Shown here: piece after piece, positions 7,808 through 52,957 of the stretch
How the letters are laid out: each line of letters opens with the position of its first letter
How positions within the stretch are numbered: the stretch's first letter is position 1
Assembly (NCBI GenBank): GCA_963668625.2
Contig: CAXXKA010000008.1
Coordinates: forward strand, 448,001-512,000
Direction of reading: 5' to 3'
DNA length: 64,000 nucleotides
Origin: an uncultured candidate division Zixibacteria bacterium
Lineage (GTDB): Bacteria; Zixibacteria; MSB-5A5; UBA10806; 4484-95
The notes under the pieces: model-generated
What the model was told of the DNA's origin: nothing
Database searches by the model: none
Seen by the model: only the letters and a program-made list of their open reading frames with translations
Made by a program: the position numbers and the translations under genes

Positions 7808-7916
7808 TAGCATACGAATCCCCTCTCATAAACTTTGCCGTTGCCTCAAACCGTTTTTTCCGTATCTCAACATCATTGAAAAAACCATAGTAAAGCCGTA
7901 AGGATATATAACTAGA

Positions 7917-17231: not shown

Positions 17232-17918
17232 ATGACAAGAGCCAGTCTCTTAGCGCTTATATTACTTCTGGCCGGTTTAATACTTCTATGGATATTTCTA
17301 ATTCGGCTTATCAGAAGACTAACTTATAAACCGGTGGAGGGTAAGCCAAATCAAGTGCCTCCCTCGGTGAGTTTTTGGTCTATATCGCTGGCTGTTGTCG
17401 TATTATCTCTTTCATGGATATTTTTCTGGATGGGGCAGCAGTTAAGCTCGTTTAAAAAATTCGATCCGCCGGGAATTATCGGCCATGTAGAAATAGTTAA
17501 TGAGCATGATCAAATTAAAACTCTTAACGTTAACTTTTTCTCTATGGTTGATGATTCCCTGGGAAAACCAACGAGTTTTTACTTAACCGGAGATCACTGG
17601 AAGCTTCAGGGGCAAGCAGTGAGACTTCCTTATTTACTAAAACCCGTGTTCAATGGCCAGCATTTCTTCAAGGTTACTGATTTTCGAGGCGAGTATATTG
17701 GGCATAAACCCCCTGGTTTCGATTCGCCGTTACTGGCACATCAAACCATAGAGGGCGGTATGGTGGATATGTTCGAGTATCTTGGCGTATTTCCGTATAT
17801 TCGTGATATTTTCATTGCGCAGGAGTTCGAAAATGAATTTCGTCTTCTAAAATATCGCGCTCAATATGATATTGTTCTTACAGACTCAAGCGAGATTTCC
17901 CTACTGGATTCTGAGTGA
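17232..17918 (+). CDS. Hypothetical membrane protein
   Basis: 228-aa ORF with two N-terminal TM segments, co-oriented. Confidence 0.7.
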   Translation: MTRASLLALILLLAGLILLWIFLIRLIRRLTYKPVEGKPNQVPPSVSFWSISLAVVVLSLSWIFFWMGQQLSSFKKFDPPGIIGHVEIVNEHDQIKTLNVNFFSMVDDSLGKPTSFYLTGDHWKLQGQAVRLPYLLKPVFNGQHFFKVTDFRGEYIGHKPPGFDSPLLAHQTIEGGMVDMFEYLGVFPYIRDIFIAQEFENEFRLLKYRAQYDIVLTDSSEISLLDSE

Positions 17919-18253
17919 CTGTAATGTTAAGAATATGCACCCGGCTGCATCCCGGTTTACCATATGAGTTAATGTAAAATAAGCTTAATAACAAAAAGTT
18001 ATCAGGATTATCTAATCTTAATCTATAAATAATAATGGTTTAGCCGGCTATTTGACAGATATGATGTATATATTGGTAACTCTGTTATGTTTTAATACAC
18101 TCCCCCCCTTACATATCCAACCATTATACAATAGTTTATGAAAACATAAATCATGTTATATATCATAACATATATTTAATGAACTTCTAATTTTTGCTGC
18201 AAGTTAAGTTATTGAAAAGCAACGGTAATAGAAGTATTCCATACGTAAAAAAA

Positions 18254-18270
18254 CAGGCATACTTTTTGCC
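18254..18270 (+). promoter_or_regulatory. Putative sigma54 -24/-12 promoter of the S8 protease gene
   Basis: CAGGCATACTTTTTGCC (GG-N10-GC) ~80 bp before ATG, within a long AT-rich leader. Confidence 0.5.
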
Positions 18271-18349
18271 GAACATTTTATTGGGAGAGAATATGTATAT
18301 GATTCTACGTCAATTAAATCTAACTTAAACCCAAATCTAAGGAGTAGTA

Positions 18350-21300
18350 ATGAGCAAAGCTAATTGGTTGTGCTTTCTACTGGTGTTAGTATTCGCGCCG
18401 GTAGTCTGGTCAGGACAAGTCAGTCCCTTCCTGGATGATTATCTTCAGGAATTTTCGACCAGTGCTGATGTCGAAGTGCTTGTAATGTTCGAACAGCAGG
18501 CCGACATCCAGAGCTTGAACCAGCAATTGAAAGATGAGAAAGCGACCCTGGCTGAACGTAACCGTCGTGTTATCGAGGCTCTACAGGAAGTCGCCACAAA
18601 CACACAGCCGTCAATGGTTGCCTATTTCGATCAGCTTCAATCCCAGGGTTATGTAAGCGAATACAAAACCATGTGGATTGCCAATATGGCTATCGTTAAA
18701 ACAACCAAGGCCGGTGTTTATGCAATGGCAGATAACAATGCTATCGGTGATATCGCCCTTAGCTATAAAGTCAGAGGTATTCAGCCGACTAAAATTTCGG
18801 AAGATGATGAATCTCTGATTGCCTCGGTTGAGGCTGGCCTTGAGGCTATCAATGCTCCGGCCGCCTGGGCTGCCGGTTTCACCGGCGCCGGCCGTGTAGT
18901 AGCGAATATGGATACCGGCGTTGACGGTAACCATCCGGCATTAGCCGATCGTTTCCGTGGTGATGTCGATGGCGATGATGATGTCGATGAGAGCTTCTTC
19001 GATCCTTATACAACCGGATGGACTTTTCCTCAGGATTCAGACTCGCATGGTACCCATACCATGGGTACGATTTGTGGCCGTTCCGAAGCCGGTGACACTG
19101 TTGGTGTCGCTATTGAGGCTCAGTGGATTGCCGCGGCTGCTATTGATCGTGGTGGCGGTATCGAGGGTACAGTCGCTGATGCTATCGAGTCGTTCCAGTG
19201 GTTTGTCGATCCCGATGACAATTCCGAAACCCAAGACAACCCGGATGCCGTCGGTAACTCCTGGGGTATCTCCCCGATTTATCATGGCGTTCCTCCATGT
19301 GATGATACTTTCTGGTCGGTAATCGATAATCTGGAAGCCGCCGGTACCGCCGTTATTTTCTCGGCCGGTAACGAGGGTCCGGATGTCGGTTCCTTGAGGA
19401 CTCCGTCCGATCGTGCTACAACCCGCTATAATGTATTTTCAGTAGGCGCTGTTGACGGCGGCAATGCGAATTACCCGGTTGCCAGTTTTTCATCCCGCGG
19501 CCCGTCTTATTGCACCCCGGATGGCGAACCGACTTTCAAGCCTGAAGTTGTCGCCCCCGGTGTTGATGTCAGAAGTTCGGTTCCCGGTGGTGGTTACTCC
19601 ACTATGAGCGGCACCTCGATGGCCTCGCCGCACGTTACCGGTTGTGTCGGTGTAATCCGCGGCGTCAATCCCGATCTCGATGTTGATTCTATCAAAGAGA
19701 TCCTGATGGCCACGGCTCATGACCTCGGCGCTGAAGGTCCTGATAACGATTACGGTGTTGGTATTATCGACATCTATGAAGCCTGCCTGATCGCTATGGA
19801 TGGCTACGGCTATATAGAAGGTTATGTATATGACGATGACACCGAAGATGGTATTGCTAATGCTTTAGTTTCTATTGATGGTACCACCAGAACTGCCATT
19901 GCCGACGACAATGGTTTCTACAGCATCGGTCTTCCCGCTGACACATCGTATTCGATGACTGCCAGTTATTTCGGTTATGTTTCCAGCAATGTCAGTGATG
20001 TCGCTGTTGTTGCCGATGAGACCACGGATCAGGATTTCTATCTTGAGCCCGCCGATGCCGGTTATCTTCATGGTTACGTAACCGACCTGGATGAGAATCC
20101 GATTGAGAGCGCGACTTTAACTATAGTCGATACTCCAATTGGTTCTGCAACCACCGATGAAAACGGCTACTATTTATTTGATGAAATTCCCGGTGGCGCC
20201 ACTTACACTGTTGAAGTTGCTGCTGTTGGATATGGTTTTGCATCTGGTATGGTTGATGTTCCGGTTGGCGATACCGCTACTTTAAGCTTCTCACTCCAGG
20301 GGATGGAGTCATTCGAAGGTTCGAATGGCGGTTATGACGGTGAAGGTACCTGGGAGTGGGGTGTGCCTAGTTCAGGTCCCGGCGAAGCCTATGATGGTAA
20401 TAATGTATGGGCTACTATTCTCGACGGTAACTATGTTGATGATCTCGATGACGGCCTGATCACACCGCAGTATGAGATTACCGACGCGAACGCCATGCTC
20501 TCGTTCTACCACTGGTACGTAATCGAGGAAGATTATGACGGTGGACAACTTCAGGTTTCTATCGATGGTGGTTTAAATTGGGATTTACTTACCCCAGAGG
20601 GTGGCTATCCGGTAGCCGAGGTCGTTGGGCTCGATGATGGTCCGGGATTCTCCGGCGAACCAGCTACCTGGGAATTAGTTGTCGTGGATCTCTCGGCTTA
20701 TGAGGGTGAAACAATCTCCATTAAATTCCGTTTCGGTACCGATGGTTCGCAACAACGCGCCGGCTGGTATATTGACGGCGTAGTACTTAACGGTGGTATC
20801 ATGAGAGCACCGGAGGCATCTTTGTCTTGTCCTTCGATGAATATTGATGTCATGCAGGGCGACTCGCATGACGTGCAGATGACTCTTTCCAACAACGGTG
20901 ATGCTCAGCTTAATTATAATGTTGTTGTGCTTACCGATCTGGCATTGAGTGCTACCGATGATACCGAAAGAAGCTACACCGGCCAGGTATTCGAGTCCAA
21001 AGAAGGCCATATCATGGACGAGAACGGTTCGATCAAGGTAACGGGCGAATCACCGTTCAACTACGATGATGTAATTACCAGTATTGGTGGCCCGGATGCA
21101 TTCGGCTACACTTACATAGACTCCGATGAGGAGAATGGCCCGCATTACGAGTGGAAAGATATCACCGGAATCGGTTCGGCGATCACTTTCAACGGTGGAA
21201 CAAATCCGAACGATGACGGTTACTCCAATTCTATCTCGATGGGCATGAATTTCGAGTTTTACGGTGTTCCTGTCACCGATATTCAGGTCAGCACCAACGG

Positions 21301-22195
21301 TTGGGTTTCTTTTAATAATTACTCGACCTCTTATCTCACCAACACCGGCATCCCCGGTACCAGTGATCCCAACAACATTATTGCCGTATTGTGGGATGAT
21401 CTCAATGGTTATGAAGGCACCTGCTACTACTACTACGATGAGACAGAGAATCAATTCATCGTCTCCTGGACCGATTGGGGTTTCTATATTTACGGTGGTG
21501 ATTCTCGTCGGTATGACATGCAGGTTATTCTTGATGGCGATGATAACTCGATTCTTTTACAATATGGTGATATCTCCGAGGGAGAATACGATAGTGATAT
21601 TTCCGTCGGTGTAGAAAACGCTGATGGTGATGTCGGGCTTGAGTACGCCTATGACAACTTTACCGGCTCAGGCGGTCTGGCTATCAAGTTCAGCTATCCT
21701 CTGTTCTGGCTGACCGTGGACCCGACTGTCGGCTATGTCGCGCCGGAAGGTTCGCAGGTATTCGATGTCAACTTCAATTCGGCTGAACTCGAACAGGGTA
21801 CCTATTACGGTGAGATTCGTATTAACACCAACGATCCCAACAACGGCATGTTCAGCGTACCATGTACTTTGAACGTAGGCCCGGTCGGTATCGATGATTA
21901 TTCATCGGCTGTTCCGAATGCGTTCACGCTGAATCAGAACTATCCCAACCCGTTCAACCCGACTACCGAGATCTCGTTCGGCTTGCCGACCGCCGGTCAC
22001 GTTAGTCTTGAGGTTTATGATGTCATGGGTCGCAAAGTCAGTATCGTCGTTGACGAGGAGATGGCTGCCGGTACCCATAGCATAATCTGGGATGGTAATA
22101 ACTTATCAGGTGAGAAGGTTACCTCGGGCGTTTATTTCTACAAACTCTCGCAGGGTGATAACACTACCACCAAAAAGATGATAATGTTGAAATAG
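18350..22195 (+). CDS. Secreted S8 subtilase (bacillopeptidase F-like) with carboxypeptidase-regulatory-like repeats, beta-sandwich domains and T9SS/FlgD-like C-terminal tail
   Basis: Signal peptide; DTG, HGTHTMG, GTSMASPHV triad; NYPNPFN...GVYFY tail. Confidence 0.9.
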   Translation: MSKANWLCFLLVLVFAPVVWSGQVSPFLDDYLQEFSTSADVEVLVMFEQQADIQSLNQQLKDEKATLAERNRRVIEALQEVATNTQPSMVAYFDQLQSQGYVSEYKTMWIANMAIVKTTKAGVYAMADNNAIGDIALSYKVRGIQPTKISEDDESLIASVEAGLEAINAPAAWAAGFTGAGRVVANMDTGVDGNHPALADRFRGDVDGDDDVDESFFDPYTTGWTFPQDSDSHGTHTMGTICGRSEAGDTVGVAIEAQWIAAAAIDRGGGIEGTVADAIESFQWFVDPDDNSETQDNPDAVGNSWGISPIYHGVPPCDDTFWSVIDNLEAAGTAVIFSAGNEGPDVGSLRTPSDRATTRYNVFSVGAVDGGNANYPVASFSSRGPSYCTPDGEPTFKPEVVAPGVDVRSSVPGGGYSTMSGTSMASPHVTGCVGVIRGVNPDLDVDSIKEILMATAHDLGAEGPDNDYGVGIIDIYEACLIAMDGYGYIEGYVYDDDTEDGIANALVSIDGTTRTAIADDNGFYSIGLPADTSYSMTASYFGYVSSNVSDVAVVADETTDQDFYLEPADAGYLHGYVTDLDENPIESATLTIVDTPIGSATTDENGYYLFDEIPGGATYTVEVAAVGYGFASGMVDVPVGDTATLSFSLQGMESFEGSNGGYDGEGTWEWGVPSSGPGEAYDGNNVWATILDGNYVDDLDDGLITPQYEITDANAMLSFYHWYVIEEDYDGGQLQVSIDGGLNWDLLTPEGGYPVAEVVGLDDGPGFSGEPATWELVVVDLSAYEGETISIKFRFGTDGSQQRAGWYIDGVVLNGGIMRAPEASLSCPSMNIDVMQGDSHDVQMTLSNNGDAQLNYNVVVLTDLALSATDDTERSYTGQVFESKEGHIMDENGSIKVTGESPFNYDDVITSIGGPDAFGYTYIDSDEENGPHYEWKDITGIGSAITFNGGTNPNDDGYSNSISMGMNFEFYGVPVTDIQVSTNGWVSFNNYSTSYLTNTGIPGTSDPNNIIAVLWDDLNGYEGTCYYYYDETENQFIVSWTDWGFYIYGGDSRRYDMQVILDGDDNSILLQYGDISEGEYDSDISVGVENADGDVGLEYAYDNFTGSGGLAIKFSYPLFWLTVDPTVGYVAPEGSQVFDVNFNSAELEQGTYYGEIRINTNDPNNGMFSVPCTLNVGPVGIDDYSSAVPNAFTLNQNYPNPFNPTTEISFGLPTAGHVSLEVYDVMGRKVSIVVDEEMAAGTHSIIWDGNNLSGEKVTSGVYFYKLSQGDNTTTKKMIMLK

Positions 22196-24806: not shown

Positions 24807-26198
24807 TTACAATTTCAAACTACCGATAAACTCATCTACCTCCGGGATACCGCCCTGCAAGACAAGGTAGCCATCATAGGGCTCGCGTGGGGTTATCTCA
24901 TCGGCGATAGGAGTGAGCATGATATTTTTCACCTCGTCGGGGTCGGTGGTTTGGCCGAGCGCCCAGCCGAGCTTGACATAAGCCACCTCTGGCAGCATGT
25001 TGGCGGCCGGTACCACACCCAGATGCATCAGGTCACGACCGGTGTCGTACACGTACATATCGACATAGCCCCAGAGAGTCTGCACGGTCATGTATACCGC
25101 GACTCCCTTATCGATAGCTTTTTTCAGAGGCTTATACAGCGGTTTGTTAACATGACCCAGTCCGGTTCCGGCGATCACTATCCCCTTATAGCCGTTGTCA
25201 ATCAGGGCCTCGATAATATCTGGCTGCATATTGGGGTAGTAATAAACGATCGCTATTTTGTCCTCGAATACCGGATTGATTTTAACGTTACGATCATCCC
25301 GACGCTTTTTGTAAGCGGTTTTAATATGGGAGATACCGCCCACCTCGACACGCGCGATCGGGACATCGCTTAAAGTACGAAACGTGGAACGATAGCTGGA
25401 ATGCATCTTACGAACCCGGGTACCCGAATGAAGCAGGTTGTATTGATCGGAGGTTGGCCCGAACATACACACCATCACCTGGGCAATATCGCCATGCGCG
25501 GCTGTCCAGGCAGCCGCCATCAGGTTACGAGCGGCATCCGAGGAGGGACGATCCGAGGAACGCTGCGATCCGACCATGACAATTGGAATCGGAGAGTCTT
25601 GCACCATGAAAGTTAATGCAGCTGCAGTGTGATGCATAGTATCGGTGCCATGACCGACGATTATACCATCAACGCCATTCTCAATCTCGCGGCCAATTGC
25701 CTCGGCTACGAGTTTCCACTGCTCCGGCCCCATATTTTCAGAAAATATACCGCAGATCTTCTCCGTGCGCATATTGCAGATATCGGCTAATTCAGGCACT
25801 GCGCCGTACAATTCGCCCGGTGTGAAAGCCGGAATAACCGCCCCGGTACGATAATCGAGGCGTGAGGCTATGGTTCCGCCGGTGCCAAGCAGGGTAACAT
25901 TGGGCTTTTTCTCATCGAACGGAAACTCTTTTTCGGGTATTTTGTACACGGCCTCTTTAAATGCCGTTTCCTTAGCCTCAAGGATGGAGGTGGTGGCCAA
26001 ACCGATATTGTAACCGTTTCGGAGTTTTAGTACGATATGTTTATCACCAGAGGTTTCCGAGCGTGGAAGAATCACGCCGACGAATTTGCCCTTATTGCTT
26101 TTAATTACAACATCCGACCATACCCGAACGCCCAGCTCCTTTAATTTGGCCAGGGCTTCGCCTTTATATCCTTTGTAAACAACGCTATCATCAGCCAC
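24807..26198 (-). CDS. gatD: Glu-tRNA(Gln) amidotransferase subunit GatD (archaeal-type)
   Basis: GatD N-domain (ILPRSE...IVLKLRNGYNIG) plus asparaginase core TGGTIASRLDYRTGAV, HGTDT, GSQRSSDRPSSD, KMHSSYRSTF. Confidence 0.9.
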   Translation of the reverse strand: MADDSVVYKGYKGEALAKLKELGVRVWSDVVIKSNKGKFVGVILPRSETSGDKHIVLKLRNGYNIGLATTSILEAKETAFKEAVYKIPEKEFPFDEKKPNVTLLGTGGTIASRLDYRTGAVIPAFTPGELYGAVPELADICNMRTEKICGIFSENMGPEQWKLVAEAIGREIENGVDGIIVGHGTDTMHHTAAALTFMVQDSPIPIVMVGSQRSSDRPSSDAARNLMAAAWTAAHGDIAQVMVCMFGPTSDQYNLLHSGTRVRKMHSSYRSTFRTLSDVPIARVEVGGISHIKTAYKKRRDDRNVKINPVFEDKIAIVYYYPNMQPDIIEALIDNGYKGIVIAGTGLGHVNKPLYKPLKKAIDKGVAVYMTVQTLWGYVDMYVYDTGRDLMHLGVVPAANMLPEVAYVKLGWALGQTTDPDEVKNIMLTPIADEITPREPYDGYLVLQGGIPEVDEFIGSLKL

Positions 26199-26747: not shown

Positions 26748-26822
26748 TGGTTCTAACTGATCGGGAGACGGTGCAGCAGATATCGGAAAATCCTTATCTT
26801 CAATACTTTCTTGGATTTTCAT
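26748..26822 (+). mobile_element. IS5-family transposase fragment
   Basis: Peptide LTDRETVQQISENPYLQYFLGFS resembles the conserved DUF772/IS5 transposase N-terminal segment. Confidence 0.6.
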
Positions 26823-26923
26823 ATGCCGAGCGGTGTGAAAATACTATTCTCAGCAGATAAGGTTTGTATCGTTGCTATCATGATGATTGCTACCATCACC
26901 ATCATTATCGTTTTCATCTTCAT
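26819..26923 (-). pseudogene. Truncated 7th array gene (signal peptide only, 34 aa)
   Basis: MKMKTIMMVMVAIIMIATIQTLSAENSIFTPLGI*; first 25 aa identical to 28312-29325 and 30721-31731. Confidence 0.8.
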
Positions 26924-26979
26924 TATTCCTCCCTTGAGAGGCGGGTAGATCAGGCAGTGCCTGACCTACCCTTACTATG

Positions 26980-28254
26980 TTACTTCAACAGTGTCATCTG
27001 CTTTGTCTCGGTGAAGGTGCCAGTGTCGATGGTGTAGAAATATACCCCACTTGCGGCATCTCTGGTATCCCAGGTTATGTTGTGATTGCCTGCGGGTAAT
27101 TGTCCCGGTGATAATGCCTCAACCAGCTGGCCTGTTATGTTGTAGATACGAATGTTAACCTCAGTCTCCTCGGGCAGGGCGAAACTGATATTCGTTTGAG
27201 CGTTGAACGGGTTGGGGTAGTTCTGAGAGAGGCTGTACTCCTGCGGCAATGGTTGCTCTGGAGCATCTACAGTGTAGAACAGATTAGCGAGGATGGCGTT
27301 AAGCATCTCGGCGCGCGTGTTCTGGCCCTCGTCGGTGAAGTAGGCAAAGCCGAAACCGTTGTACCAGTCGAAGCGGCCAGTTTCGCCAGCTTCAACAATA
27401 ATACCTCTTTTGCCGGGATAATAGGGAATACCTTCAAAAGCTGTTCGAATTATATCATCTCTAGGACTGTAATCATCATGAGGCGCAGGTTCATTATATT
27501 CTACAATTAAGCCCGAAGTACATCGATTATAGGAAACCCCAGCAATAGCACGATTAAGCAAAACAGGCCAAGATGGAAATGTATTAAAAATATTAAAGTA
27601 ATCATCATTGTTAAAATCACCGAAATTGATTACTTTTCCTCCGTTTTCAGCATAGGGGTATATTAAATCGAAATGGTTTTGTAATTGCTGTTCGGTTAGT
27701 CTTTGTTCTCCATACTGCCCATCGCAATCAATTACTACATCATAGCAGTTAAGCTCAAGCATATCGGGAAGTGAATTTGCAGTAGTGAAATTATAACCTA
27801 TTCTTGAACCTACTGCAATTAAGCTGTCAGCATTGTGGGAATCTATCTCGTCGATTACGAGTATGGCATTAACATCCGCACATTTACCAAGCGGTGTGAT
27901 ATTTTCATCACGCGGTTCGTACCTGCCGATGGGGATATTTCTATCCTCGTAGAACCTGTTAGGATACGAGGCTCTTATTTGTACTTGTCCTGGCCGCCAG
28001 ATTGTTGAATTGAAGAAATACCTGCCTTGCTGAGTATAACCTATTTTCATTAAATTATTCTCCGGGCTCCAGCAAACTACTTTTATACTGTCAGGTTGGC
28101 CATTGTTATCGTATCGACCATTGTCATCTACATTGATGATTACCTGCTGTGGGTTTCTTGATGGTGAAATGTGGTTCTGGGCTGATAATGGTATCAGCAA
28201 TGCCAGCATGAACACAACCACCGCCATTATCATCAATATCGTTTTGTTATTCAT
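26980..28254 (-). CDS. Array gene G6: secreted protein, signal + module A + module B(type 3) + T9SS-like tail
   Basis: Signal peptide; shared modules with neighbours; NYPNPFN tail. Confidence 0.85.
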   Translation of the reverse strand: MNNKTILMIMAVVVFMLALLIPLSAQNHISPSRNPQQVIINVDDNGRYDNNGQPDSIKVVCWSPENNLMKIGYTQQGRYFFNSTIWRPGQVQIRASYPNRFYEDRNIPIGRYEPRDENITPLGKCADVNAILVIDEIDSHNADSLIAVGSRIGYNFTTANSLPDMLELNCYDVVIDCDGQYGEQRLTEQQLQNHFDLIYPYAENGGKVINFGDFNNDDYFNIFNTFPSWPVLLNRAIAGVSYNRCTSGLIVEYNEPAPHDDYSPRDDIIRTAFEGIPYYPGKRGIIVEAGETGRFDWYNGFGFAYFTDEGQNTRAEMLNAILANLFYTVDAPEQPLPQEYSLSQNYPNPFNAQTNISFALPEETEVNIRIYNITGQLVEALSPGQLPAGNHNITWDTRDAASGVYFYTIDTGTFTETKQMTLLK

Positions 28255-28311
28255 TATTCCTCCCTTGAGAGGGGGGGTAAGTCAGGCAGTGCCTGACCTA
28301 CCCTTACTATG

Positions 28312-29325
28312 TTACTTCAACAGTGTCATCTGCTTTGTCTCGGTGAAGGTGCCAGTGTCGATGGTGTAGAAATATACCCCACTTGCGGCATCTCTGGTAT
28401 CCCAGGTTACGTTATGATTGCCCGCGGGTAACAACCCCGGTGATAATGTCTCAACCAACTGGCCGGTGATGTTGTAAATGCGGATGCTGACCTCAGTCTC
28501 CTCTGGCAAAGCGAAACTGATATTTGTTTTAGCGTTGAATGGGTTGGGGTAGTTCTGGGAGAGTGAGTACTCCTGCGGCAATGGTTGCTCCGGCGCATCG
28601 ACAGTGTAGAACAGGTTTTTGAGGATGACGTTTAGCATCTCAGCGCGTGTGTTCTGCCCCTCATCGGTGAAGTAGGCAAAGCCGAAACCGTTGTACCAGT
28701 CGAAACGGCCAGTTTCGCCGACTTCAACTATAATCCCGCGTACACCTTGAATGAAAGGAGCTGGTTCAAATATTGCTGTATACCAGCCAGTAACTCTCGG
28801 CATGTAATCGTTGTGGGGAGCAGGTTCGTTGTACTCAACACTTATCCCAGCAGTTACATCATTGCAGCTTAATCCCACCATGGATGTATTGCACCCTAAG
28901 AATGGAATTGTAGTATAATCAAAAACGCCGATGTAATCATCATTTCTAAAATCACCGAAGTTAATGACTTTACCTCCAAGTTCAGCGTATGCATAAAGCA
29001 AATTAAAATGCTCTTGAAGTTGTTGTTCACTCATGAATGGTTCACCGTATTGCCTGGAGCCGTCAAAGTCTATTACAACATCGTAAATATCAAGCTCAAG
29101 CATATCAGGTAGAACATTTACGGTTGTTAAATTGTAATCTAACCTTGTTGCCACAGCAATTAAACTATCAGCGTTAGGAGAGTTGAGTTGGTCGATTACT
29201 AAGATTGAATCAACGTCAGCGCATTTGTTGAATGGCGTGAAACTACTATCCTCAGCAGATAAGGTTTGTATCGTTGCTATCATGATGATTGCTACCATCA
29301 CCATCATTATCGTTTTCATCTTCAT
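28312..29325 (-). CDS. Array gene G5: secreted protein, signal + module B(type 2) + T9SS-like tail
   Basis: As above. Confidence 0.85.
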   Translation of the reverse strand: MKMKTIMMVMVAIIMIATIQTLSAEDSSFTPFNKCADVDSILVIDQLNSPNADSLIAVATRLDYNLTTVNVLPDMLELDIYDVVIDFDGSRQYGEPFMSEQQLQEHFNLLYAYAELGGKVINFGDFRNDDYIGVFDYTTIPFLGCNTSMVGLSCNDVTAGISVEYNEPAPHNDYMPRVTGWYTAIFEPAPFIQGVRGIIVEVGETGRFDWYNGFGFAYFTDEGQNTRAEMLNVILKNLFYTVDAPEQPLPQEYSLSQNYPNPFNAKTNISFALPEETEVSIRIYNITGQLVETLSPGLLPAGNHNVTWDTRDAASGVYFYTIDTGTFTETKQMTLLK

Positions 29326-29383
29326 TATTCCTCCCTTGAGAGGCGGGTAGATCAGGCAGTACCTGACCTACTCTGTGACTATG

Positions 29384-30664
29384 TTACCTCAACAGTGTCA
29401 TCTGCTTTGTCTCGGTGAAAGCGCCGGTGTCGATAGTGTAGAAATACACACCACTGGCGGCATCGTTGGCATCCCAGGTTACGTTATGATTGCCTGCGGG
29501 TAACAACCCCGGTGATAGTGTCTCCACCAACTGGCCGGTTATGTTGTAGATGCGGATGCTGACCTCAGTCTCCTCTGGCAAAGCGAAACTGATATTTGTT
29601 TTAGCGTTGAATGGGTTGGGGTAGTTCTGGGAGAGTGAGTACTCCTGCGGCAATGGTTGCTCCGGAGCATCGACAGTATAGAACAGGTTAGCGAGGATGG
29701 CGTTTAGCATCTCGGCGCGGGTGTTCTGGCCCTCATCGGTGAAATAGGCAAAGCCGAAACCGGGATACCAATCAAATCGGCCTGTCTCGCCCGCCTCAAT
29801 TGCCATTGCTCGTGTTCCCTGCCTGAATGGCATAGGTTCGAAAATTGTAGTACTCCAGCCAGAGTAAGGCATATAATCATCATGCGGTGCAGGCTCGTTG
29901 TATGCTATACTCATTCCACCGGTAATAGGATTATTAATAAATCCATTCATAACTGAATTAATGCCAAGGAAGAAAGTATCCCAACAGCTAAATATATCCC
30001 AGTAATCATCATTTCTAAAGTCCCCGAAATTGATTATCTTTCCACCATTTTCAGCGTATTGGTATAGTAAATCGAAATGCTCTTGAAGCACTTCGTCACT
30101 CATGAAAGATTCGCCATATAGCCTGGAACCATCGAAATCAATAACAACATCGTAGTTCTCAAGCTCTAACGAGGAAGGAAGTTCATGTGTTTTACAAATC
30201 TCATATCCCTGACGTATGCCTATCTTAATCAAACTATCGGCGTTGTGTGAATAAGTTTGATCAATGACAAGTATTGTTCGTACATCAGCGCATTTGCTGA
30301 GAGGTGTTATATTTTCATCGCGTGGTTCGTATCTGCCAATGGGGATATTTTTATCATCGTAGAATCTGTTAGGATATGAGGCTCTTACCTGTACTTGCCC
30401 CGGCCGCCAGATTGTTGAATTGAAGAAATACCTACCTTGCTGAGTATAACCTATTTTCATTAAGTTGTTCTCAGGACTCCAGCACACTACTTTTACGCTG
30501 TCAGGTTGGCTATTGTTATCGTATCGGCCGTTGTCATCTACGTTTATGATTACCTGCTGTGGGTTTCTTGATGGTGAAATGTGGTTCTGGGCTGATAATG
30601 GTATCAGCAATGCCAGCATGAACACAACCACCGCCATTATCATCAATATCGTTTTGTTATTCAT
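29384..30664 (-). CDS. Array gene G4: secreted protein, signal + module A + module B(type 1) + T9SS-like tail
   Basis: Start reassigned to ATG 30664 (MNNK) after GGGAGG RBS; module B nearly identical to that of G1. Confidence 0.85.
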   Translation of the reverse strand: MNNKTILMIMAVVVFMLALLIPLSAQNHISPSRNPQQVIINVDDNGRYDNNSQPDSVKVVCWSPENNLMKIGYTQQGRYFFNSTIWRPGQVQVRASYPNRFYDDKNIPIGRYEPRDENITPLSKCADVRTILVIDQTYSHNADSLIKIGIRQGYEICKTHELPSSLELENYDVVIDFDGSRLYGESFMSDEVLQEHFDLLYQYAENGGKIINFGDFRNDDYWDIFSCWDTFFLGINSVMNGFINNPITGGMSIAYNEPAPHDDYMPYSGWSTTIFEPMPFRQGTRAMAIEAGETGRFDWYPGFGFAYFTDEGQNTRAEMLNAILANLFYTVDAPEQPLPQEYSLSQNYPNPFNAKTNISFALPEETEVSIRIYNITGQLVETLSPGLLPAGNHNVTWDANDAASGVYFYTIDTGAFTETKQMTLLR

Positions 30665-30720
30665 TATTCCTCCCACGAGAGGGGGGTAAGTCAGGCAGTG
30701 CCTGACCTACCCTTACTATG

Positions 30721-31731
30721 TTACTTCAACAGTGTCATCTGCTTTGTCTCGATGAAAGCTCCGGTATCGATAGTGTAGAAATACACCCCGCTGGCGGCAT
30801 CGTTGGCATCCCAGGTTACGTTGTGATTGCCTGCGGGCAGCAATCCCGGTGATAGTGTCTCAACCAACTGGCCGGTGATGTTGTAAATGCGGATGCTGAC
30901 CTCAGTCTCCTCTGGCAACGCGAAACTGATATTTGTTTTAGCGTTGAAAGGATTGGGGTAGTTCTGGGAGAGGCTATATTCCTGTGGCAGTTCTTGTTCG
31001 GGCGCATCGACAGTGTAGAACAGGTTAGCGAGGATGGCGTTGAGTAGCTCCTCTCTGGTATTCTGTCCTTCATCAGTGAAGTAGGCAAAGCCGAAACCGT
31101 TGTACCAGTCGAAACGGCCAGTTTCGCCGATTACAACTGTAACACCTCTTTTACCGGGATAATAAGGAAGCCCCTCAAAAGCTGTTCGGCCATTATCATC
31201 TCTGGGCCAGTAATCACAATGAGGGGCAGGTTCATTATAATCTACAATGAGGCCTGAAGTACATCGATTATAGGAAACCCCGGCCATAGCATGATTAAGC
31301 ATAACAGGATCTGATGTAAAAGTGTAGAAGACATCAAAATAATCGTCATTCTCAAAATCACCGAAATTGATTACTTTGCCTCCATTTTCAGCGTATTGGT
31401 ATAGTAAATCGAAATGCTCTTGAAGTACTTCGTCGCTCATGAAAGATTCGCCATATTGCCTGGAGCCGTCAAAGTCTATTACAACATCGTAAATATCAAG
31501 CTCAAGCATATCAGGTAGAACATTTACGGTTGTTAAATTGTAATCTAACCTTGTTGCCACAGCAATTAAACTATCAGCGTTAGGAGAGTTGAGTTGGTCG
31601 ATTACTAAGATTGAATCAACGTCAGCGCATTTGTTGAATGGGGTGAAACTACTATCCTCAGCAGATAAGGTTTGTATCGTTGCTATCATGATGATTGCTA
31701 CCATCACCATCATTATCGTTTTCATCTTCAT
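30721..31731 (-). CDS. Array gene G3: secreted protein, signal + mosaic module B + T9SS-like tail
   Basis: Segments match G5, G4 and G6 in turn. Confidence 0.85.
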   Translation of the reverse strand: MKMKTIMMVMVAIIMIATIQTLSAEDSSFTPFNKCADVDSILVIDQLNSPNADSLIAVATRLDYNLTTVNVLPDMLELDIYDVVIDFDGSRQYGESFMSDEVLQEHFDLLYQYAENGGKVINFGDFENDDYFDVFYTFTSDPVMLNHAMAGVSYNRCTSGLIVDYNEPAPHCDYWPRDDNGRTAFEGLPYYPGKRGVTVVIGETGRFDWYNGFGFAYFTDEGQNTREELLNAILANLFYTVDAPEQELPQEYSLSQNYPNPFNAKTNISFALPEETEVSIRIYNITGQLVETLSPGLLPAGNHNVTWDANDAASGVYFYTIDTGAFIETKQMTLLK

Positions 31732-31789
31732 TATTCCTCCCTTGAGAGGCGGGTAGATCAGGCAGTACCTGACCTACTCTGTGACTATG

Positions 31790-32803
31790 TTACCTCAACA
31801 GTGTCATCTGCTTTGTCTCGGTGAAAGCGCCGGTGTCGATAGTGTAGAAATACACACCACTGGCGGCATCGTTGGCATCCCAGGTTACGTTGTGATTGCC
31901 TGCGGGCAGCAATCCCGGTGATAGTGTCTCAACCAACTGGCCGGTGATGTTGTAAATGCGGATGCTGACCTCAGTCTCCTCTGGCAGGGCGAAACTGATA
32001 TTCGTTTGAGCATTGAACGGGTTGGGGTAGTTCTGGGATAGGTTGTACTCCCGCGGTAGTGATAGTTCTGGCGTATCGACAGTGTAGAACAGGTTTTTGA
32101 GGATGACGTTTAGCATCTCAGCGCGTGTGTTCTGCCCCTCATCGGTGAAGTAGGCAAAGCCGAAACCGTTGTACCAGTCGAAACGGCCAGTTTCGCCGAC
32201 TTCAACTATAATCCCGCGTACACCTTGAATGAAAGGAGCTGGTTCAAATATTGCTGTATACCAGCCAGTAACTCTTGGCATGTAATCGTTGTGGGGACCA
32301 GGTTCGTTGTACTCAACACTTATCCCAGCAGTTACATCATTGCAGCTTAATCCCACCATGGATGTATTGCATCCTAAGAATGGAATTGTAGTATAATCAA
32401 AAACGCCGATGTAATCATCATTTCTAAAATCACCGAAGTTAATGGCTTTACCTCCAAGTTCAGCGTATGCATAAAGCAAATTAAAATGCTCTTGAAGTTG
32501 TTGTTCACTCATGAATGGTTCACCATATAGCCTTGAGCCGTCAAAGTCTAATACCACATCGTAAGTATCAAGCTCAAGCATATTGGGAAGAGCATTTACA
32601 AAAGTTAAATTATAGCCTTGCCTTGTACCTATAGCAACTAAACTATCAGCGTTGTGGGAGTTGAGCTGATCGATAACCAGGATTGAATCAATATCGGCAC
32701 ATTTGTTGAATGGCGTGATACTACTATCCTCAGCAGATAAGGTTTGTATCGTTGCTATCATGATGATTGCCGCCAGCACCATCATTATCGTTTTGTTATT
32801 CAT
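31790..32803 (-). CDS. Array gene G2: secreted protein, signal + module B(type 2) + T9SS-like tail
   Basis: C-terminal part of module B near-identical to G5. Confidence 0.85.
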   Translation of the reverse strand: MNNKTIMMVLAAIIMIATIQTLSAEDSSITPFNKCADIDSILVIDQLNSHNADSLVAIGTRQGYNLTFVNALPNMLELDTYDVVLDFDGSRLYGEPFMSEQQLQEHFNLLYAYAELGGKAINFGDFRNDDYIGVFDYTTIPFLGCNTSMVGLSCNDVTAGISVEYNEPGPHNDYMPRVTGWYTAIFEPAPFIQGVRGIIVEVGETGRFDWYNGFGFAYFTDEGQNTRAEMLNVILKNLFYTVDTPELSLPREYNLSQNYPNPFNAQTNISFALPEETEVSIRIYNITGQLVETLSPGLLPAGNHNVTWDANDAASGVYFYTIDTGAFTETKQMTLLR

Positions 32804-32859
32804 TATTCCTCCCTTGAGAGGCGGGTAGATCAGGCAGTGCCTGACCTACCCTTACTATG

Positions 32860-35800
32860 TTACTTCAACAGTGTCATCTGCTTTGTCTCTGTGAAAGCTC
32901 CGGTGTCGATAGTGTAGAAATACACCCCGCTGGCGGCATCGTTGGCATCCCAGGTTATGTTGTGGTTGCCCGCGGGTAACTGCCCCGGTGATATCGTCTG
33001 AACTAACTGGCCTTTTATGTTGTAGATACGAATGTTAACCTCAGTCTCCTCTGGCAGGGCGAAACTGATATTCGTTTGAGCGTTGAACGGGTTGGGGTAA
33101 TTCTGGGATAGTGAGTACTCCTGTGGCAGTGGTTGCTCGGGCGCATCGACAGTGTAGAACAGGTTTTTGAGTATGGCGTTTAGCATATCGGCGCGTGTGT
33201 TTTGGCCCTCATCGGTGAAGTAGGCAAAACCGAAACCGGGATACCAATCAAATCGCCCGGTCTCACCCGCCTCGATTGCCATTGCTCGTGTTCCCTGCCT
33301 GAATGGCATAGGTTCGAAAATTGTAGTACTCCAGCCAGAGTAAGGCATATAATCATCATGCGGTGCAGGCTCGTTGTATGCTATACTCATTCCACCGGTA
33401 ATAGGATTATTAATAAATCCATTCATAACTGAATTAATGCCAAGGAAGAAAGTATCCCAACAGCTAAATATATCCCAGTAATCATCATTTCTAAAGTCCC
33501 CGAAATTGATTATCTTTCCACCATTTTCAGCATATGGGTATAGTAAATCATAATGCTCTTGAAGCACTTCGTCACTCATGAAAGATTCGCCATATAGCCT
33601 GGAACCATCGAAATCAATAACAACATCGTAGTTCTCAAGCTCTAACGAGGAAGGAAGTTCATGTGTTTTACAAATCTCATATCCCTGACGTATGCCTATC
33701 TTAATCAAACTATCGGCGTTGTGTGAATAAGTTTGATCAATGACAAGTATTGTTCGTACATCCGCGCATTTGCTGAGAGGTGTGATATTTTCATCACGCG
33801 GTTCGTACCTGCCGATGGGGATATTTCTATCATCGTAGAACCTGTTAGGATACGAGGCTCTTACTTGTACTTGCCCCGGCCGCCAGATTGTTGAATTGAA
33901 GAAATACCTACCTTGCTGAGTATAACCTATTTTCATTAAATTATTCTCCGGGCTCCAGCAAACTACTTTTATACTGTCAGGTTGGCCATTGTTATCGTAT
34001 CGACCATTGTCATCTACATTGATGATTACCTGCTGTGGGTTTCTTGATGGTGAAATGTGGCTAGGACATTCTGATTGTAAGTATCTGTAACTAGTATTAC
34101 TACGCATTGGTGCTAAGGGGTTGCCAAAGTAATTTAATACTCTAAATTCCTGTGTATAAGGGCATGAAGATCCCCCCATAGCGAGGTAATGGCCAAAAGC
34201 AATTGATCTCTCTTCAATCGGTAAATCACTCATCTCTACAACAAAGAGAAACCTATTCAAGCATTTTAAATAAAACGGGTACGATGGTTTGTACAATGCT
34301 CCGGCAGCACCGATGCAGCTATGAGATGAACCGCTATTCATCAAAAACTCCACCATAGATGTATCACTGTAGTGGTCTACATCCCACCAGCTATAATCAT
34401 CGCAATCAACAGATGCAGAAAAGTCTGGTAAAATGTATATATTACCGCCATACTGATAATTACATCTTTTACTATAAAAGAAACTAAAATTAGATAAGTA
34501 CGGCCCATAGTAACCAGATTGCCTGGTAGTAAACATTGCCGGGTTGCAAGGTGCCATAACCATATTGTAATAGTTATCCCCCCATGGCGCCATTAGTTGC
34601 TCGGGTGTATATACTAAAGGAAGTTCAGCATCGCCATCAGGCTGGCCCTCAAATCCCTCAGGGAAATGAGAAATATTGTATCCAGAGATCGGCTCTGTCG
34701 CATAAAGGTATGATCCCCAATCAACGAATTCGTTAACTGAATAGGTGGCAATATCTCTTACATGCAGATACGGATTATCAAATGGAAGACTTTCCGGTAC
34801 CGGTTGGTTCTCAGAACGAACCATAGCCTCGGCATAGTTTGCAAGTTCGCTTGCATTGTTGCAGGGAATCCTACCGAGCCAGACTTGCGGAATAGTAGGG
34901 TAGATACCATCAATATTACGAGCCTCTAAGTAAGCTCCGTTACCGTTGCCATCATATAACGATAGCTCGCCAACGAGTAATGTGTAAATTATGTCGCTTC
35001 TGTTTAAATCGTCAGGTCTGCCATCCGGGTGCGCCTCGGGAAACGCCGTGTAGAAAATTGGGATGTCGGTGTTGGGGTCATCGCTTTGGGGGGCGAAACT
35101 GCCTATGAGCATCACGTAATTGGTGCCGTACTGCTGTTTGTGATACTTAATACAGTTGCGGATCTTATCCTTGGTGTTGATACCCGTATAATCATGCTCA
35201 ATCCGTTCGCGCGAAAGAGTCAACGGCGGATAACCCATCATGAGCAGGTGATGGGCGATCTTGTAGGTCGGCTCGGTGTCGTAGAAATCGTTGGCGGTGA
35301 TAAGCAGTATGGCGGGGTTGGTAAACTCCATCACCGAATTAACAGTGTCGACATCCCGGAACACGGTCTCGTTGTATTGAAGGATAGCGGTGCCGGAGGG
35401 CTGCCTTGCGGGCACCTGCCGCGGGTTTAAGGTGACCATAGCTTTCTGCACCGCGATATTCAACGCCGAGTCGGCAACGAACATGGCGCTGGGGCAAATC
35501 GGGTCGCGGCTAATCGAGGTGTAGTTAAACGAGAAACTGACACTCTCGACATGGCGTATCTGGTTGGTGGCGGGGTAGTAAACATAGGAGTATATCATCA
35601 CCCGGGCAAACGTGGCCCCGTTGAGATAGTCCTCCCCGATGAACTCTACCGGGTCGGCGGGATACTGCGCCATCGAGTACTCCGCGCCGGGCGGTACGAA
35701 CTCGGGCGGCTGCGGCCACGGGTAGAGTTCAAAGTTAACCAGGCTGTCGGCGATATCGTGATCGGGCGGCTGCACCGGCAGCGGCAGGTAATCCAGATCG

Positions 35801-36093
35801 ATCGGATCGCCAAGCTGCACGGTATAGCTCACGCCATTAGCGATGAGATTTTGCGGCGAGATCTCCATCTCGTAGATCACCGGGATCTCGGGCGCGCCTA
35901 CCTGGCCGGAGTTGGTGAGCGCTAATTCCTCACCGCTAAGTTTAATGTACTGATTGCTATTATAAGTAACTTCGGTTCGATTGAGTTCACCAAAACGAGA
36001 GTGAACATCAATACTGTAATTTGCCAGTGCGAGCTGTGTGGTGAGACCCAAGATGAAAAAGCATATGATCCAAAACATCCGTGTGCGAGTCAT
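32860..36093 (-). CDS. Array head gene G1: gingipain/peptidase C25-like protein (propeptide + C25-like domain) fused to module A + module B(type 1) + T9SS-like tail
   Basis: GAPEIP propeptide motif, ILLIT, IRNCIK...YVMLIG, SD..Y, WLGRIP, N.FGNP; RBS GGAGGAG. Confidence 0.75.
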   Translation of the reverse strand: MTRTRMFWIICFFILGLTTQLALANYSIDVHSRFGELNRTEVTYNSNQYIKLSGEELALTNSGQVGAPEIPVIYEMEISPQNLIANGVSYTVQLGDPIDLDYLPLPVQPPDHDIADSLVNFELYPWPQPPEFVPPGAEYSMAQYPADPVEFIGEDYLNGATFARVMIYSYVYYPATNQIRHVESVSFSFNYTSISRDPICPSAMFVADSALNIAVQKAMVTLNPRQVPARQPSGTAILQYNETVFRDVDTVNSVMEFTNPAILLITANDFYDTEPTYKIAHHLLMMGYPPLTLSRERIEHDYTGINTKDKIRNCIKYHKQQYGTNYVMLIGSFAPQSDDPNTDIPIFYTAFPEAHPDGRPDDLNRSDIIYTLLVGELSLYDGNGNGAYLEARNIDGIYPTIPQVWLGRIPCNNASELANYAEAMVRSENQPVPESLPFDNPYLHVRDIATYSVNEFVDWGSYLYATEPISGYNISHFPEGFEGQPDGDAELPLVYTPEQLMAPWGDNYYNMVMAPCNPAMFTTRQSGYYGPYLSNFSFFYSKRCNYQYGGNIYILPDFSASVDCDDYSWWDVDHYSDTSMVEFLMNSGSSHSCIGAAGALYKPSYPFYLKCLNRFLFVVEMSDLPIEERSIAFGHYLAMGGSSCPYTQEFRVLNYFGNPLAPMRSNTSYRYLQSECPSHISPSRNPQQVIINVDDNGRYDNNGQPDSIKVVCWSPENNLMKIGYTQQGRYFFNSTIWRPGQVQVRASYPNRFYDDRNIPIGRYEPRDENITPLSKCADVRTILVIDQTYSHNADSLIKIGIRQGYEICKTHELPSSLELENYDVVIDFDGSRLYGESFMSDEVLQEHYDLLYPYAENGGKIINFGDFRNDDYWDIFSCWDTFFLGINSVMNGFINNPITGGMSIAYNEPAPHDDYMPYSGWSTTIFEPMPFRQGTRAMAIEAGETGRFDWYPGFGFAYFTDEGQNTRADMLNAILKNLFYTVDAPEQPLPQEYSLSQNYPNPFNAQTNISFALPEETEVNIRIYNIKGQLVQTISPGQLPAGNHNITWDANDAASGVYFYTIDTGAFTETKQMTLLK

Positions 36094-36897
36094 ATCTCCT
36101 CCAAGAGTTAAAGGTATAAAACAGTAATTGATTATCAGCCTGCGAATGGGGTGGTTAGCTCGAATCCCAATTTATAGTATGGTTTACTCCAACTTTAATA
36201 ATGTCGATGATTTAATAATGCAAGGTTTGACCAAAACGAGCTATAGCCGTTTGATAGGTTTCCTAAGAATCATTTTAAACCCCTTTCCTTGTGGCTATAT
36301 AAGAAATATCGGCCGGCCTCGATAGACTTTTAGCGAGCCTCCGCAACTTTGGGTTATTACCGATAAATGCAATTTATGCCGCCTCGTTCCATAGCCCAAA
36401 AAATAATTACTCTCTTAGACATGGCATCGCAGTAGATGCCGTCCTCTCTCACTTACTCGAATTGATTATAATCTCCCGATTTCGGGGTGAATGTTTTTGT
36501 TTATCTCATTTACGATTGTTAATGCCGAACTGCTTTCAAGTAGTAGGGGAAATTCGTTGCGGGCTGATGAAAATCATGCCGCCCTATCAAACGAGCCGTG
36601 GAAAAACGAGCCTCGCCTGCATAAAAAAATCGATTATACTACGTATGTAGCAAATCGATTTTATTCTTTAGATATTACATTAGTGCTGGATTCATGATAG
36701 TTTGCATTCTCCCCTTAACCAAAACCTTCTTTAATATACCAGCAGACAAAAGCCTGTCAAGGGAAAAATGATCTATTTATCTGGCTTATTGACACCTAAT
36801 GCAATAGCTAATAAATAGATAACAAATTGCAAGTTGGGGCACCGCCCGGGCAAGCAAGGACGTACCCTAGCCACGAAATTATCATTCCTGAATTGGA

Positions 36898-37446
36898 TTA
36901 TCGTCTTGCAACTTTGCGTGGAAGGCCGGTTAAGCGTAGTTTCTCGTCAATTAGATTTTCATAACCGGCATTCAGATAATACTCCTCGATATTCTCATAG
37001 GCTTTGATGAACGGCTTGCCATGCCCCATACGTCCATGACGGGTGGCCTCCAATACATGCGCGGACTCGTGAATGAATGTCTCGAATATCTCGGATTCGG
37101 AGTAGGGCCGTATATCTCGCGGCGTCCATTTGTCGTAGGCTTTGTTGTGACGGCCTTTGATCGAGTAGATCCGCACCTCGGAGGGCACGCCGCCGGTATG
37201 GAATGTCACGCCGGCCACGAATATCTTTTTGCGTATCGGGAGATACACCGGCAGTTTCTTCAACTCGAAATCCTCGCTGAGCTGATCGTATAGATGCTGC
37301 AATTCGGCCCGCGCCTGGCCACGAAGTTTTTTAAACGAGGGATCGTTTTTCAGTTGATAGGTGAAATCGGTCAACGTGGAGGTTGCCTGTTGCAAGAGTT
37401 CCACGGCCTGTTTATAGTTTCCGTACTTTTCGAGAGCGTTTGTCAT
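36898..37446 (-). CDS. HEXXH zinc-metalloprotease-like (SprT-like) protein
   Basis: HESAH...GHGKPF motif. Confidence 0.55.
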   Translation of the reverse strand: MTNALEKYGNYKQAVELLQQATSTLTDFTYQLKNDPSFKKLRGQARAELQHLYDQLSEDFELKKLPVYLPIRKKIFVAGVTFHTGGVPSEVRIYSIKGRHNKAYDKWTPRDIRPYSESEIFETFIHESAHVLEATRHGRMGHGKPFIKAYENIEEYYLNAGYENLIDEKLRLTGLPRKVARR

Positions 37447-52565: not shown

Positions 52566-52943
52566 TTATTCCAGGTCCAGCCAGCGATCCTCGATGGAGC
52601 TTGTCTCGATAAAATCCTCGAGCAATCTGGTATCGTCATCTGTTGCATCCAGCAGTTCAACACCGGAGTCGAAGAAACCGGGATGGTCGCCAACTGCCGA
52701 CCAGACTACACGTCCGTTAAAATGTAATTCACGTTTGCTCTTGAAAGATTCCGGCAGAATTACGTCGAGTTTTATCTCCTTGTTTGGCTCGAGAGGATCG
52801 GGACCGTAAAGACCCAGGCCACTTACAGATAAATCGACGGCCTCCCCCAGGGTCTTATCGGTGCTTGTTTCCTGGACTTTTGTGTAAGAGATAACATGTA
52901 CTCGTTTGTTAGCTCGCCTTTCGCTCATGGTTATGCCCCCCAA
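52566..52943 (-). CDS. PilZ domain protein
   Basis: RRANKR and DLSVSG motifs. Confidence 0.85.
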   Translation of the reverse strand: MGGITMSERRANKRVHVISYTKVQETSTDKTLGEAVDLSVSGLGLYGPDPLEPNKEIKLDVILPESFKSKRELHFNGRVVWSAVGDHPGFFDSGVELLDATDDDTRLLEDFIETSSIEDRWLDLE

Positions 52944-52957
52944 ATAGCGAAGAAATA

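Follow-up and report, generated by a model that had tools for sequence, protein, structure and literature searches.

An array of repeated genes for secreted proteins was found on a contig of an uncultured candidate division Zixibacteria bacterium (GenBank assembly GCA_963668625.2, contig CAXXKA010000008.1). The stretch analyzed here, positions 448,001 to 512,000 of the forward strand, is 64,000 nucleotides (nt) long and is called the window; coordinates are counted from its first letter. According to the open reading frame (ORF) listing, the array occupies 26819-36093 and consists of a head gene, G1, followed by five intact genes and one stump of 34 amino acids (aa), all on the minus strand. 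We read it as a lineage-restricted tandem multigene family of type IX secretion system (T9SS) cargo proteins that was expanded by segmental duplication and exchanges tracts by gene conversion, and we give this reading a probability of about 60%.

Layout of the Gene Array

In the protein alignment, the downstream genes repeat the last ~400 aa of G1, with new signal peptides in front. The product of every intact gene contains a signal peptide, module B and then a T9SS type-A sorting domain, and in some copies module A precedes module B. Two patches of module B, V1 and V2, vary between copies. The parts of the array are as follows.

32860-36093, minus strand: G1, head gene, 1077 aa; signal peptide, N-terminal region, C25-like region, module A, module B (V2 type I) and T9SS type-A sorting domain
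31790-32803, minus strand: G2, short form (signal peptide, module B, sorting domain), 337 aa; V2 type III at 32198-32422
30721-31731, minus strand: G3, short form, 336 aa; V2 type II at 31129-31350
29384-30664, minus strand: G4, long form (signal peptide, module A, module B, sorting domain), 426 aa from ATG; V2 type I at 29792-30013
28312-29325, minus strand: G5, short form, 337 aa; V2 type III at 28720-28944
26980-28254, minus strand: G6, long form, 424 aa; V2 type II at 27388-27609
26819-26923, minus strand: G7, stump of a seventh cassette, 34 aa; short-form signal peptide plus a few residues
33772-34062 (G1), 30296-30586 (G4) and 27886-28176 (G6), minus strand: module A, ~97 aa, from the protein alignment
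33130-33771, minus strand: module B in G1, ~214 aa, with the variable patches V1 at 33631-33771 and V2 at 33268-33489

An initial annotation of this DNA had mapped a head gene and six co-oriented downstream genes, a map that holds in both the ORF listing and the protein alignment. The alignment also bore out its division into long forms with module A, module B and tail (G4 and G6) and short forms with module B and tail (G2, G3 and G5), and it contains the motifs quoted for module B (ILVID...YDVVIDFDG...YAENGGK). In tblastn, each module copy in the array was recovered at E ≤ 1e-89, which rules out chance, and none was found elsewhere in the window.

Duplication of a Three-Gene Unit

A higher-order period of ~2.4 kb had been proposed for the array. 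The start-to-start distances behind it (2406 and 2402 nt, and 2410 nt) are correct, but the strongest self-similarity with a long overlap lies at 3476 nt. Compared with itself without gaps, the sequence has an identity of 0.465 at this offset over 3806 nt, against 0.391 at 2406 nt; a higher value at an offset of 5880 nt rests on 1402 nt only. Along the array the V2 types follow the order I, III, II, I, III, II. Together, the 3476-nt offset and the V2 order indicate a three-gene unit (I, III, II) that is present twice. When the corresponding part of G1 (G1c) plus G2 is aligned to G4 plus G5, 2114 of 2273 aligned bases are identical (93%), and G3 plus G4 agrees with G5 plus G6 at 1978 of 2378 (83%). 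G6 carries module A, which its counterpart G3 lacks. Tandem Repeats Finder, whose longest period is 500, found no repeat.

Mosaic Copies Under Purifying Selection

Protein identity between copies is 94-96% in module A, 85-98% in the C-terminal block of module B and 89-99% in the sorting domain (tail), and the middle of module B ranges from 69 to 96%. V1, the smaller of the two patches, lies at the start of module B and is 53-68% identical between the main classes and 77% identical between G2 and G3 or G5. V2 occurs as type I in G1 and G4, type II in G3 and G6 and type III in G2 and G5, with 38-49% identity between types and 76-100% within them; these are the three very different types that had been noticed in the middle of module B. 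It had also been suggested that signal peptide, module A and tail are all near-constant. This is true of module A and the tail, but not of the signal peptides, which fall into two classes in the protein alignment, with a hybrid in G2.

V1 is common to G3 and G5, which differ in V2, and V2 is common to G2 and G5, while G3 and G6 have the same V2 type and different V1. The two patches thus occur in different combinations. Diversification by recombination, as proposed earlier, is strongly indicated, since the copies are mosaic by window identities, site partitions and the pairwise homoplasy index (PHI). The same gene pair jumps between 98-100% and 43-60% DNA identity in neighboring 60-column windows, and the dominant site partition shifts along the alignment. 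PHI was 0.121 against 0.266 in permutations, of which 0 of 1000 were as low; for module B plus tail alone it was 0.145 against 0.273 (0/1000). Over the signal peptide and V1, alignment windows of G3 and G5 are 98-100% identical in DNA. G4 has the same V2 as G1 over an exact tract of 257 nt, and module B of G1 is 97-100% identical to that of G4 in DNA over ~480 alignment columns.

The constant parts have synonymous divergence (dS) of 0.2-0.9, and their ratio of nonsynonymous to synonymous divergence (dN/dS) is 0.04-0.16 in module A and 0.04-0.10 in the sorting domain. For the C-terminal block of module B, dN/dS is 0.03-0.14 in 12 of 15 pairs and 0.19-0.41 for G2-G3, G2-G5 and G3-G5. Between V2 types, dN is ~0.5 and dS is saturated. 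The high dS together with the low dN/dS indicates that the copies are old and functional, and not merely homogenized. To judge from the alignments, recent gene-conversion tracts (up to 257 identical bases) overlie these old copies.

Sorting Domains, Signal Peptides and Export

The T9SS type-A sorting domain was found above cut-offs in six of six intact genes, both as PF18962 (44-49 bits, cut-off 27) and as TIGR04183 (44.7-48.3 bits, cut-off 23). The nearest solved chain to the tail of G1 is the Por sorting domain 8glj_D (E 0.0017). Read by eye, the N-termini are Sec signal peptides: they begin with charged residues, continue with a core of 15-20 hydrophobic residues and close with a small-x-small site whose last residues are Ser-Ala. 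The window has another gene for T9SS cargo, an S8 peptidase with a sorting domain (18350-22195, plus strand), and its presence nearby suggests that the organism uses the type IX secretion route. In the open-access literature, no paper was found that links Zixibacteria with type IX secretion or T9SS.

Predicted signal-peptidase cleavage would leave an N-terminal Gln in the long forms (G6, start 28254; G4, start 30664) and an N-terminal Glu in the short forms. In the passages of PMC5837995 drawn on here, the rule of an N-terminal Gln holds for Bacteroidetes and not for the whole Fibrobacteres-Chlorobi-Bacteroidetes (FCB) group.

Search for Relatives of Modules A and B

The strong purifying selection on modules A and B indicates that they are functional. 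NCBIfam gave no family for them, and the sorting domain was the sole Pfam family in G2-G6. A word-seeded search of 5.8 billion proteins with residues 25-256 of G2 returned 4 matches among 235 candidates, all of them the window's own. An exhaustive HMMER search of 1.84 billion representatives was made with a profile, A2, of modules A plus B of all six copies, and gave two matches at E ≤ 0.001, the window's own protein and P0005 (E 8.4e-4). P0005 was rejected as a chance match to a repetitive low-complexity translation, covering profile positions 24-67 only. A match to modules A plus B of G4 in a plasmid collection (E 0.01, 26% identity) was rejected because it lies in no ORF of at least 80 aa in that frame; a phage collection had no match to the same modules. 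Kinship of module B with the C25 region was also rejected, hhalign of A2 against A3 giving a probability of 0.1.

As far as sequence comparison goes, modules A and B are an orphan domain family. By eye, the strand pattern of module A suggests a small beta-sandwich, and the Asp/Asn-rich loops of module B could bind calcium.

The C25-Like Region of the Head Gene

Two parts of G1 bear on its relation to the C25 peptidases.

34693-35307, minus strand: first half of Peptidase_C25 (profile positions 2-185 of 374), G1 residues 263-467; Pfam E 2e-11, 44.2 bits, cut-off 23
34063-34800, minus strand: putative divergent C-terminal (catalytic) subdomain of C25, G1 residues 432-677, from language-model features

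The head gene had been described as C25-like, in agreement with this Pfam match of 44.2 bits against a cut-off of 23. A protein search with residues 250-600 found one of 3095 candidates at E ≤ 10, P0008 (E 0.084), the lone distant relative of G1 found. This metagenomic protein of 893 aa matches C25 in full and also carries a sorting domain. In BLASTP, residues 50-431 of G1 are 24% identical to P0008, with a pairwise E of 1e-14. Residues 432-677 had no Pfam match and no significant alignment to P0008 (local score 31, shuffle mean 36.6). In language-model features, 29 of the 30 Atlas clusters nearest to residues 432-677 are Peptidase_C25 (score 0.94, 183 of 256 features shared), and this part is probably a divergent C-terminal subdomain of C25.

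By eye, His478 and Cys516 of G1 follow hydrophobic strands and stand 38 residues apart; the spacing in P0008 is 36, and that of the catalytic dyad of RgpB is 33. The head protein may have peptidase activity or be catalytically dead. AlphaFold modeled residues 231-677, with P0008, at a predicted local distance difference test score (pLDDT) of 28.3, too low for the model to be used. The N-terminal region of G1 had no match among 5380 candidates in the protein search and none in NCBIfam. In the Protein Data Bank (PDB), G1 matched through its sorting domain only, and P0008 had no match.

Spacers, Putative Promoter and Array End

The features between and around the genes are as follows.

32804-32859, 31732-31789, 30665-30720, 29326-29383, 28255-28311 and 26924-26979, minus strand: six near-identical spacers of 56-58 nt, from sequence comparison
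36733-36760, minus strand: best sigma-70-like promoter match, with 11 of 12 hexamer positions, a 16-nt spacer and TG before the -10 hexamer, ~640 nt upstream of the G1 start codon
26576-26860, plus strand: IS5-like transposase remnant, a 94-aa ORF with DUF772 (PF05598, E 9.8e-6, 25.9 bits, cut-off 23.1)

Each spacer contains a hairpin of 11-13 bp without a T-run and then a 5-bp hairpin that covers the Shine-Dalgarno sequence. The spacer hairpins have near-perfect stems and 3-nt loops, with -22 to -31 kcal/mol and z-scores of -1.4 to -5.2, and both variants of the 3' arm retain pairing. The spacer motif occurs at six places only in the window, with 0 expected by chance. Integron cassette arrays have an attC-like recombination site after each cassette and an integrase. 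This type of array was rejected here, given the near-perfect spacer hairpins, the lack of an integrase in the window and the nature of the cassettes, which are paralogues rather than unrelated genes.

It was proposed earlier that the genes form one operon. This is plausible, as they lie on the same strand with spacers of 56-58 nt that carry a Shine-Dalgarno sequence, and none of the six spacers has a terminator-like site. The promoter match comes from a consensus scan only, which gave 42 sites against 33.8 expected in shuffles and is therefore weak evidence. Between the promoter-like site and the G1 start codon lies an unusually long, non-coding leader of ~640-800 nt (36094-36760, minus strand). 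It contains no noteworthy ORF, and Rfam gave no match in it or anywhere else in the window; a tRNA scan of the window was negative as well.

At the far end of the array, the homology of G7 to G3 and G5 stops near 26823, and the transposase remnant and G7 are truncated at the same junction. This suggests that one deletion removed the rest of both, and the array may once have been longer.

Interpretation and Alternatives

The array grew by segmental duplication of the ~3.48-kb three-gene unit, and its copies then exchanged tracts through gene conversion. Purifying selection has kept module A, the C-terminal block of module B and the sorting domain near-constant in protein despite substantial synonymous divergence. 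A promoter upstream of G1 probably drives the genes as one transcript, and the spacer hairpins may modulate the stability of the mRNA or the translation of each cistron. The products are probably exported by Sec and then by T9SS, and would lose the sorting domain and either stay attached to the surface or be released. Modules A plus B are, in the view we prefer, probably a non-catalytic accessory or binding module with its specificity set by V1 and V2. A cell would then have a number of specificities on display together, and one of these would be joined to a protease-like domain, much as the gingipain adhesin modules relate to HagA. The earlier picture of G1 as a scaffold with variant subunits around it is speculative.

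The array had been put forward as a candidate new system, a label that we do not retain. No reverse transcriptase or recombinase Pfam domain was present in the array genes or in the 39 ORFs scanned among the 67 that are 120 aa or longer, and the search for inverted repeats or an invertible promoter upstream of G1 gave three weak inverted pairs of 15-17 nt only. All intact cassettes have their own start codon, Shine-Dalgarno sequence and signal peptide, and every cassette is complete and under purifying selection. With no recombinase, reverse transcriptase or invertible promoter in the window, the array therefore looks like an ordinary, though orphan, multigene family of secreted proteins.

Several observations weigh against the reading as a T9SS cargo family diversified by gene conversion. 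A domain scan found no T9SS machinery gene in the 64-kb window, and transcription, secretion and surface display of the products are all inferred. Modules A plus B matched no Pfam family at E ≤ 10, apart from one chance-level match to DUF4325 (E 0.1), and the A2 profile returned nothing from the PDB at E ≤ 10; the AlphaFold model of the two modules, made with 6 sequences, had a pLDDT of 36.2, again too low to be used. Where it could be measured, dN/dS in V2 was 0.19-0.37, which is no signal of positive selection. In the head gene, one automatic alignment (MAFFT) set a Pro and an Asp of G1 opposite the candidate His and Cys of P0008. The spacer hairpins may have been kept only as part of the duplicated unit. 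Finally, exact tracts of 150-257 nt are shared in four gene pairs, and a short-read assembler could mis-join such copies.

This last point leads to the explanation that the array is in part an assembly artefact, in which the copy number, the order or some of the mosaic junctions are chimeric joins through near-identical repeats. According to the sections of PMC4404884 used here, the reference genome of Tannerella forsythia was wrongly assembled at a comparable locus for T9SS cargo, the repeated KLIKK protease locus, where it showed ORFs that do not exist. In the present array, however, six reading frames are intact over 9 kb, and G3 and G6 have 69-90% DNA identity across V2, so these two are not collapsed duplicates. 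The copies also show high synonymous divergence from each other, and the array lies within a contig of 1,398,153 bases. We therefore regard an artefact of this kind as improbable. About equally slim are the chances of an antigenic variation locus, in which G1 would be the functional gene and the downstream copies mainly donors that rewrite its C-terminal part by gene conversion. The recombination signal throughout the array would fit, and the near-identity of module B in G1 and G4, including the 257-nt exact tract, points to a recent transfer between the head gene and a cassette. Yet every cassette has its own expression and export signals, from start codon and Shine-Dalgarno sequence to signal peptide and sorting domain, and the cassettes are intact and under strong purifying selection, unlike silent cassettes; nor does the window hold the recombinase, reverse transcriptase or invertible promoter discussed above.

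The main rival concerns the nature of module B, which could be an enzyme domain with a ThuA-like, class-I-amidotransferase-like or other alpha/beta hydrolytic fold, the array then being a set of secreted isoenzymes with different substrate specificities. A ThuA-like or class-I-GATase fold had been inferred earlier from the motifs of module B. Module B holds a fully invariant stretch of 25 residues and many invariant Asp, Asn, His and Glu residues, and the low-confidence model (pLDDT 36) has alternating strand and helix elements. Its Atlas neighbors include clusters auto-named 'xanthan lyase (fragment)' and DUF4960 (score 0.92-0.93). However, the neighbors are mostly unnamed clusters without a family, and they share 145-159 of 256 features, below the 170 that are typical of true family members. 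The empty Pfam and PDB searches at E ≤ 10 count against an enzyme as well, and no nucleophile motif was recognized by eye. We consider this reading unlikely, and keep to a lineage-restricted family of T9SS cargo proteins with probably non-catalytic modules.

A wider version of that reading is possible, and we offer it tentatively. The array would be an undescribed surface-diversity locus of Zixibacteria, built on an A+B family without a detectable relative among ~15 billion predicted proteins. Selection would fix the parts for secretion and anchoring together with the structural frame, and gene conversion among expressed tandem copies would recombine two ancient sets of V1/V2 alleles of a recognition patch. 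The copies would include the tail of the head protein, which is gingipain-like and may be catalytically dead. One cell would in this way display combinatorial specificities.

Comparison With Known Systems

The gingipains of Porphyromonas had been named as an analogy. It is acceptable as an analogy only, because Pfam places modules A and B in no family, the cleaved-adhesin family included. The array resembles RgpA, Kgp and HagA of Porphyromonas gingivalis in having a C25-family head protein whose C-terminal non-catalytic modules recur in a separate protein, and in the terminal T9SS sorting domain. The mosaic variants of the gingipain and HagA modules, among them three variants of one Kgp adhesin domain, are ascribed to domain rearrangement and genetic exchange in the part of PMC5266723 considered here. 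In contrast, the stand-alone copies of the array follow the head gene immediately as a tandem row of small genes, which have their own signal peptides and sorting domains. Its organism belongs to another phylum, and G1 is known as C25-like by sequence, with its catalytic dyad not placed.

A second point of comparison is the KLIKK proteases of T. forsythia, which are encoded by clustered T9SS cargo genes with nearly identical sorting domains. As described in the portion of PMC4404884 cited here, their C-terminal extension consists of a conserved segment (30 aa), a variable region (140-160 aa) and a conserved sorting domain (86 aa), without homology to known proteins. The array proteins likewise run from a conserved segment through a variable region to the sorting domain. 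However, every KLIKK gene codes for a protease domain of its own, unlike those of the others, and has a small lipoprotein gene in front of it, whereas the array has a protease-like region in the head gene only, its other genes being the 'extension' alone, with no lipoprotein genes between them. Sequence similarity to the KLIKK proteases was not detected, the module searches giving no relatives at all. As their modules have no sequence relationship to those of the array, we claim membership in neither the gingipain/HagA nor the KLIKK families.

Surface-protein multigene families that diversify by gene conversion include opa and pilS of Neisseria, msp2 of Anaplasma and vls of Borrelia. The array shares with them the conserved flanks around divergent central patches and the exchange of tracts between paralogues. 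It differs in that there is no division into an expression site and silent cassettes, all intact copies being complete, and there is no sign of programmed switching.

If the array is real, a logic known from oral Bacteroidota is at work in an uncultured phylum with entirely different building blocks. In this logic, the C-terminal modules of a T9SS cargo protein with a protease-like part also occur as secreted proteins in their own right, and recombination reshuffles them. The locus opens no long-standing question and gives no pointer to a new mechanism. Modules A and B, being functional and yet not placed by current methods of sequence comparison and structure prediction, are a reasonable target for structure determination.

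Genome Context

The window carries the origin-region housekeeping genes yidC, mnmE, mnmG, rsmG, parA and parB. The array is adjoined by a gene for an archaeal-type GatD, a subunit of the Glu-tRNA(Gln) amidotransferase (24807-26198, minus strand; NCBIfam equivalog, 510.6 bits, cut-off 310). GatE was not seen in the window. Of 448 matched stretches of genome contigs, 408 had a GatD relative. Identity was highest, at 83%, in one Zixibacteria metagenome-assembled genome (MAG) and one MAG labelled Ignavibacteria, followed by 79%, 76% and 75%, all in Zixibacteria. We fetched 80 loci with GatD relatives at 69-83% identity, mostly from MAGs of the FCB group (Zixibacteria, Ignavibacteria, Fermentibacteria, Calditrichota and Bacteroidales), with a few labelled otherwise. 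In tblastn at E ≤ 0.01, module A, module B and the N-terminal region of G1 were found in none of the 80 loci; the only matches were to the sorting domain, in 15 loci.

Among 11 GatD loci compared, a single one, L001, shares a neighbor gene with the window, the S8 peptidase (52% identity). On the array side of GatD, L001 has oppositely oriented ORFs, none of which matches a gene of the window. The S8 subtilase of the window (1281 aa) combines two carboxypeptidase-regulatory-like domains with a MAM-like domain and a sorting domain, the last 43% identical to that of the array; the counterpart of this subtilase in L001, a Zixibacteria MAG locus, also lies near GatD (17721-21383).

Upstream of the array and on the same strand, an ORF of 182 aa (36898-37446, minus strand) contains an HExxH motif; its SprT-like match stays below the threshold (E 1.4e-4, 22.1 bits, cut-off 25.6). 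It may on these grounds encode a small metallopeptidase. In NCBIfam, eight of nine neighboring hypothetical ORFs had no T9SS component or other assignment, and the ninth, this same ORF, had a sub-threshold match of tetratricopeptide repeat (TPR) type only (21.3 bits, cut-off 32).

Between yidC and mnmE, a stretch of low GC content (5606-9400; 0.36-0.39, against ~0.44-0.49 elsewhere) holds a gene for a STAND-NTPase/TPR protein of 733 aa and an ORF of 331 aa with a weak transglutaminase-core match, and may be an inserted island. Two adjacent genes for PilZ-domain proteins of 125 and 122 aa (52566-53326, minus strand) lie upstream of a carboxypeptidase-regulatory-like ORF and a gene for a VWA/YfbK-type protein on the same strand.

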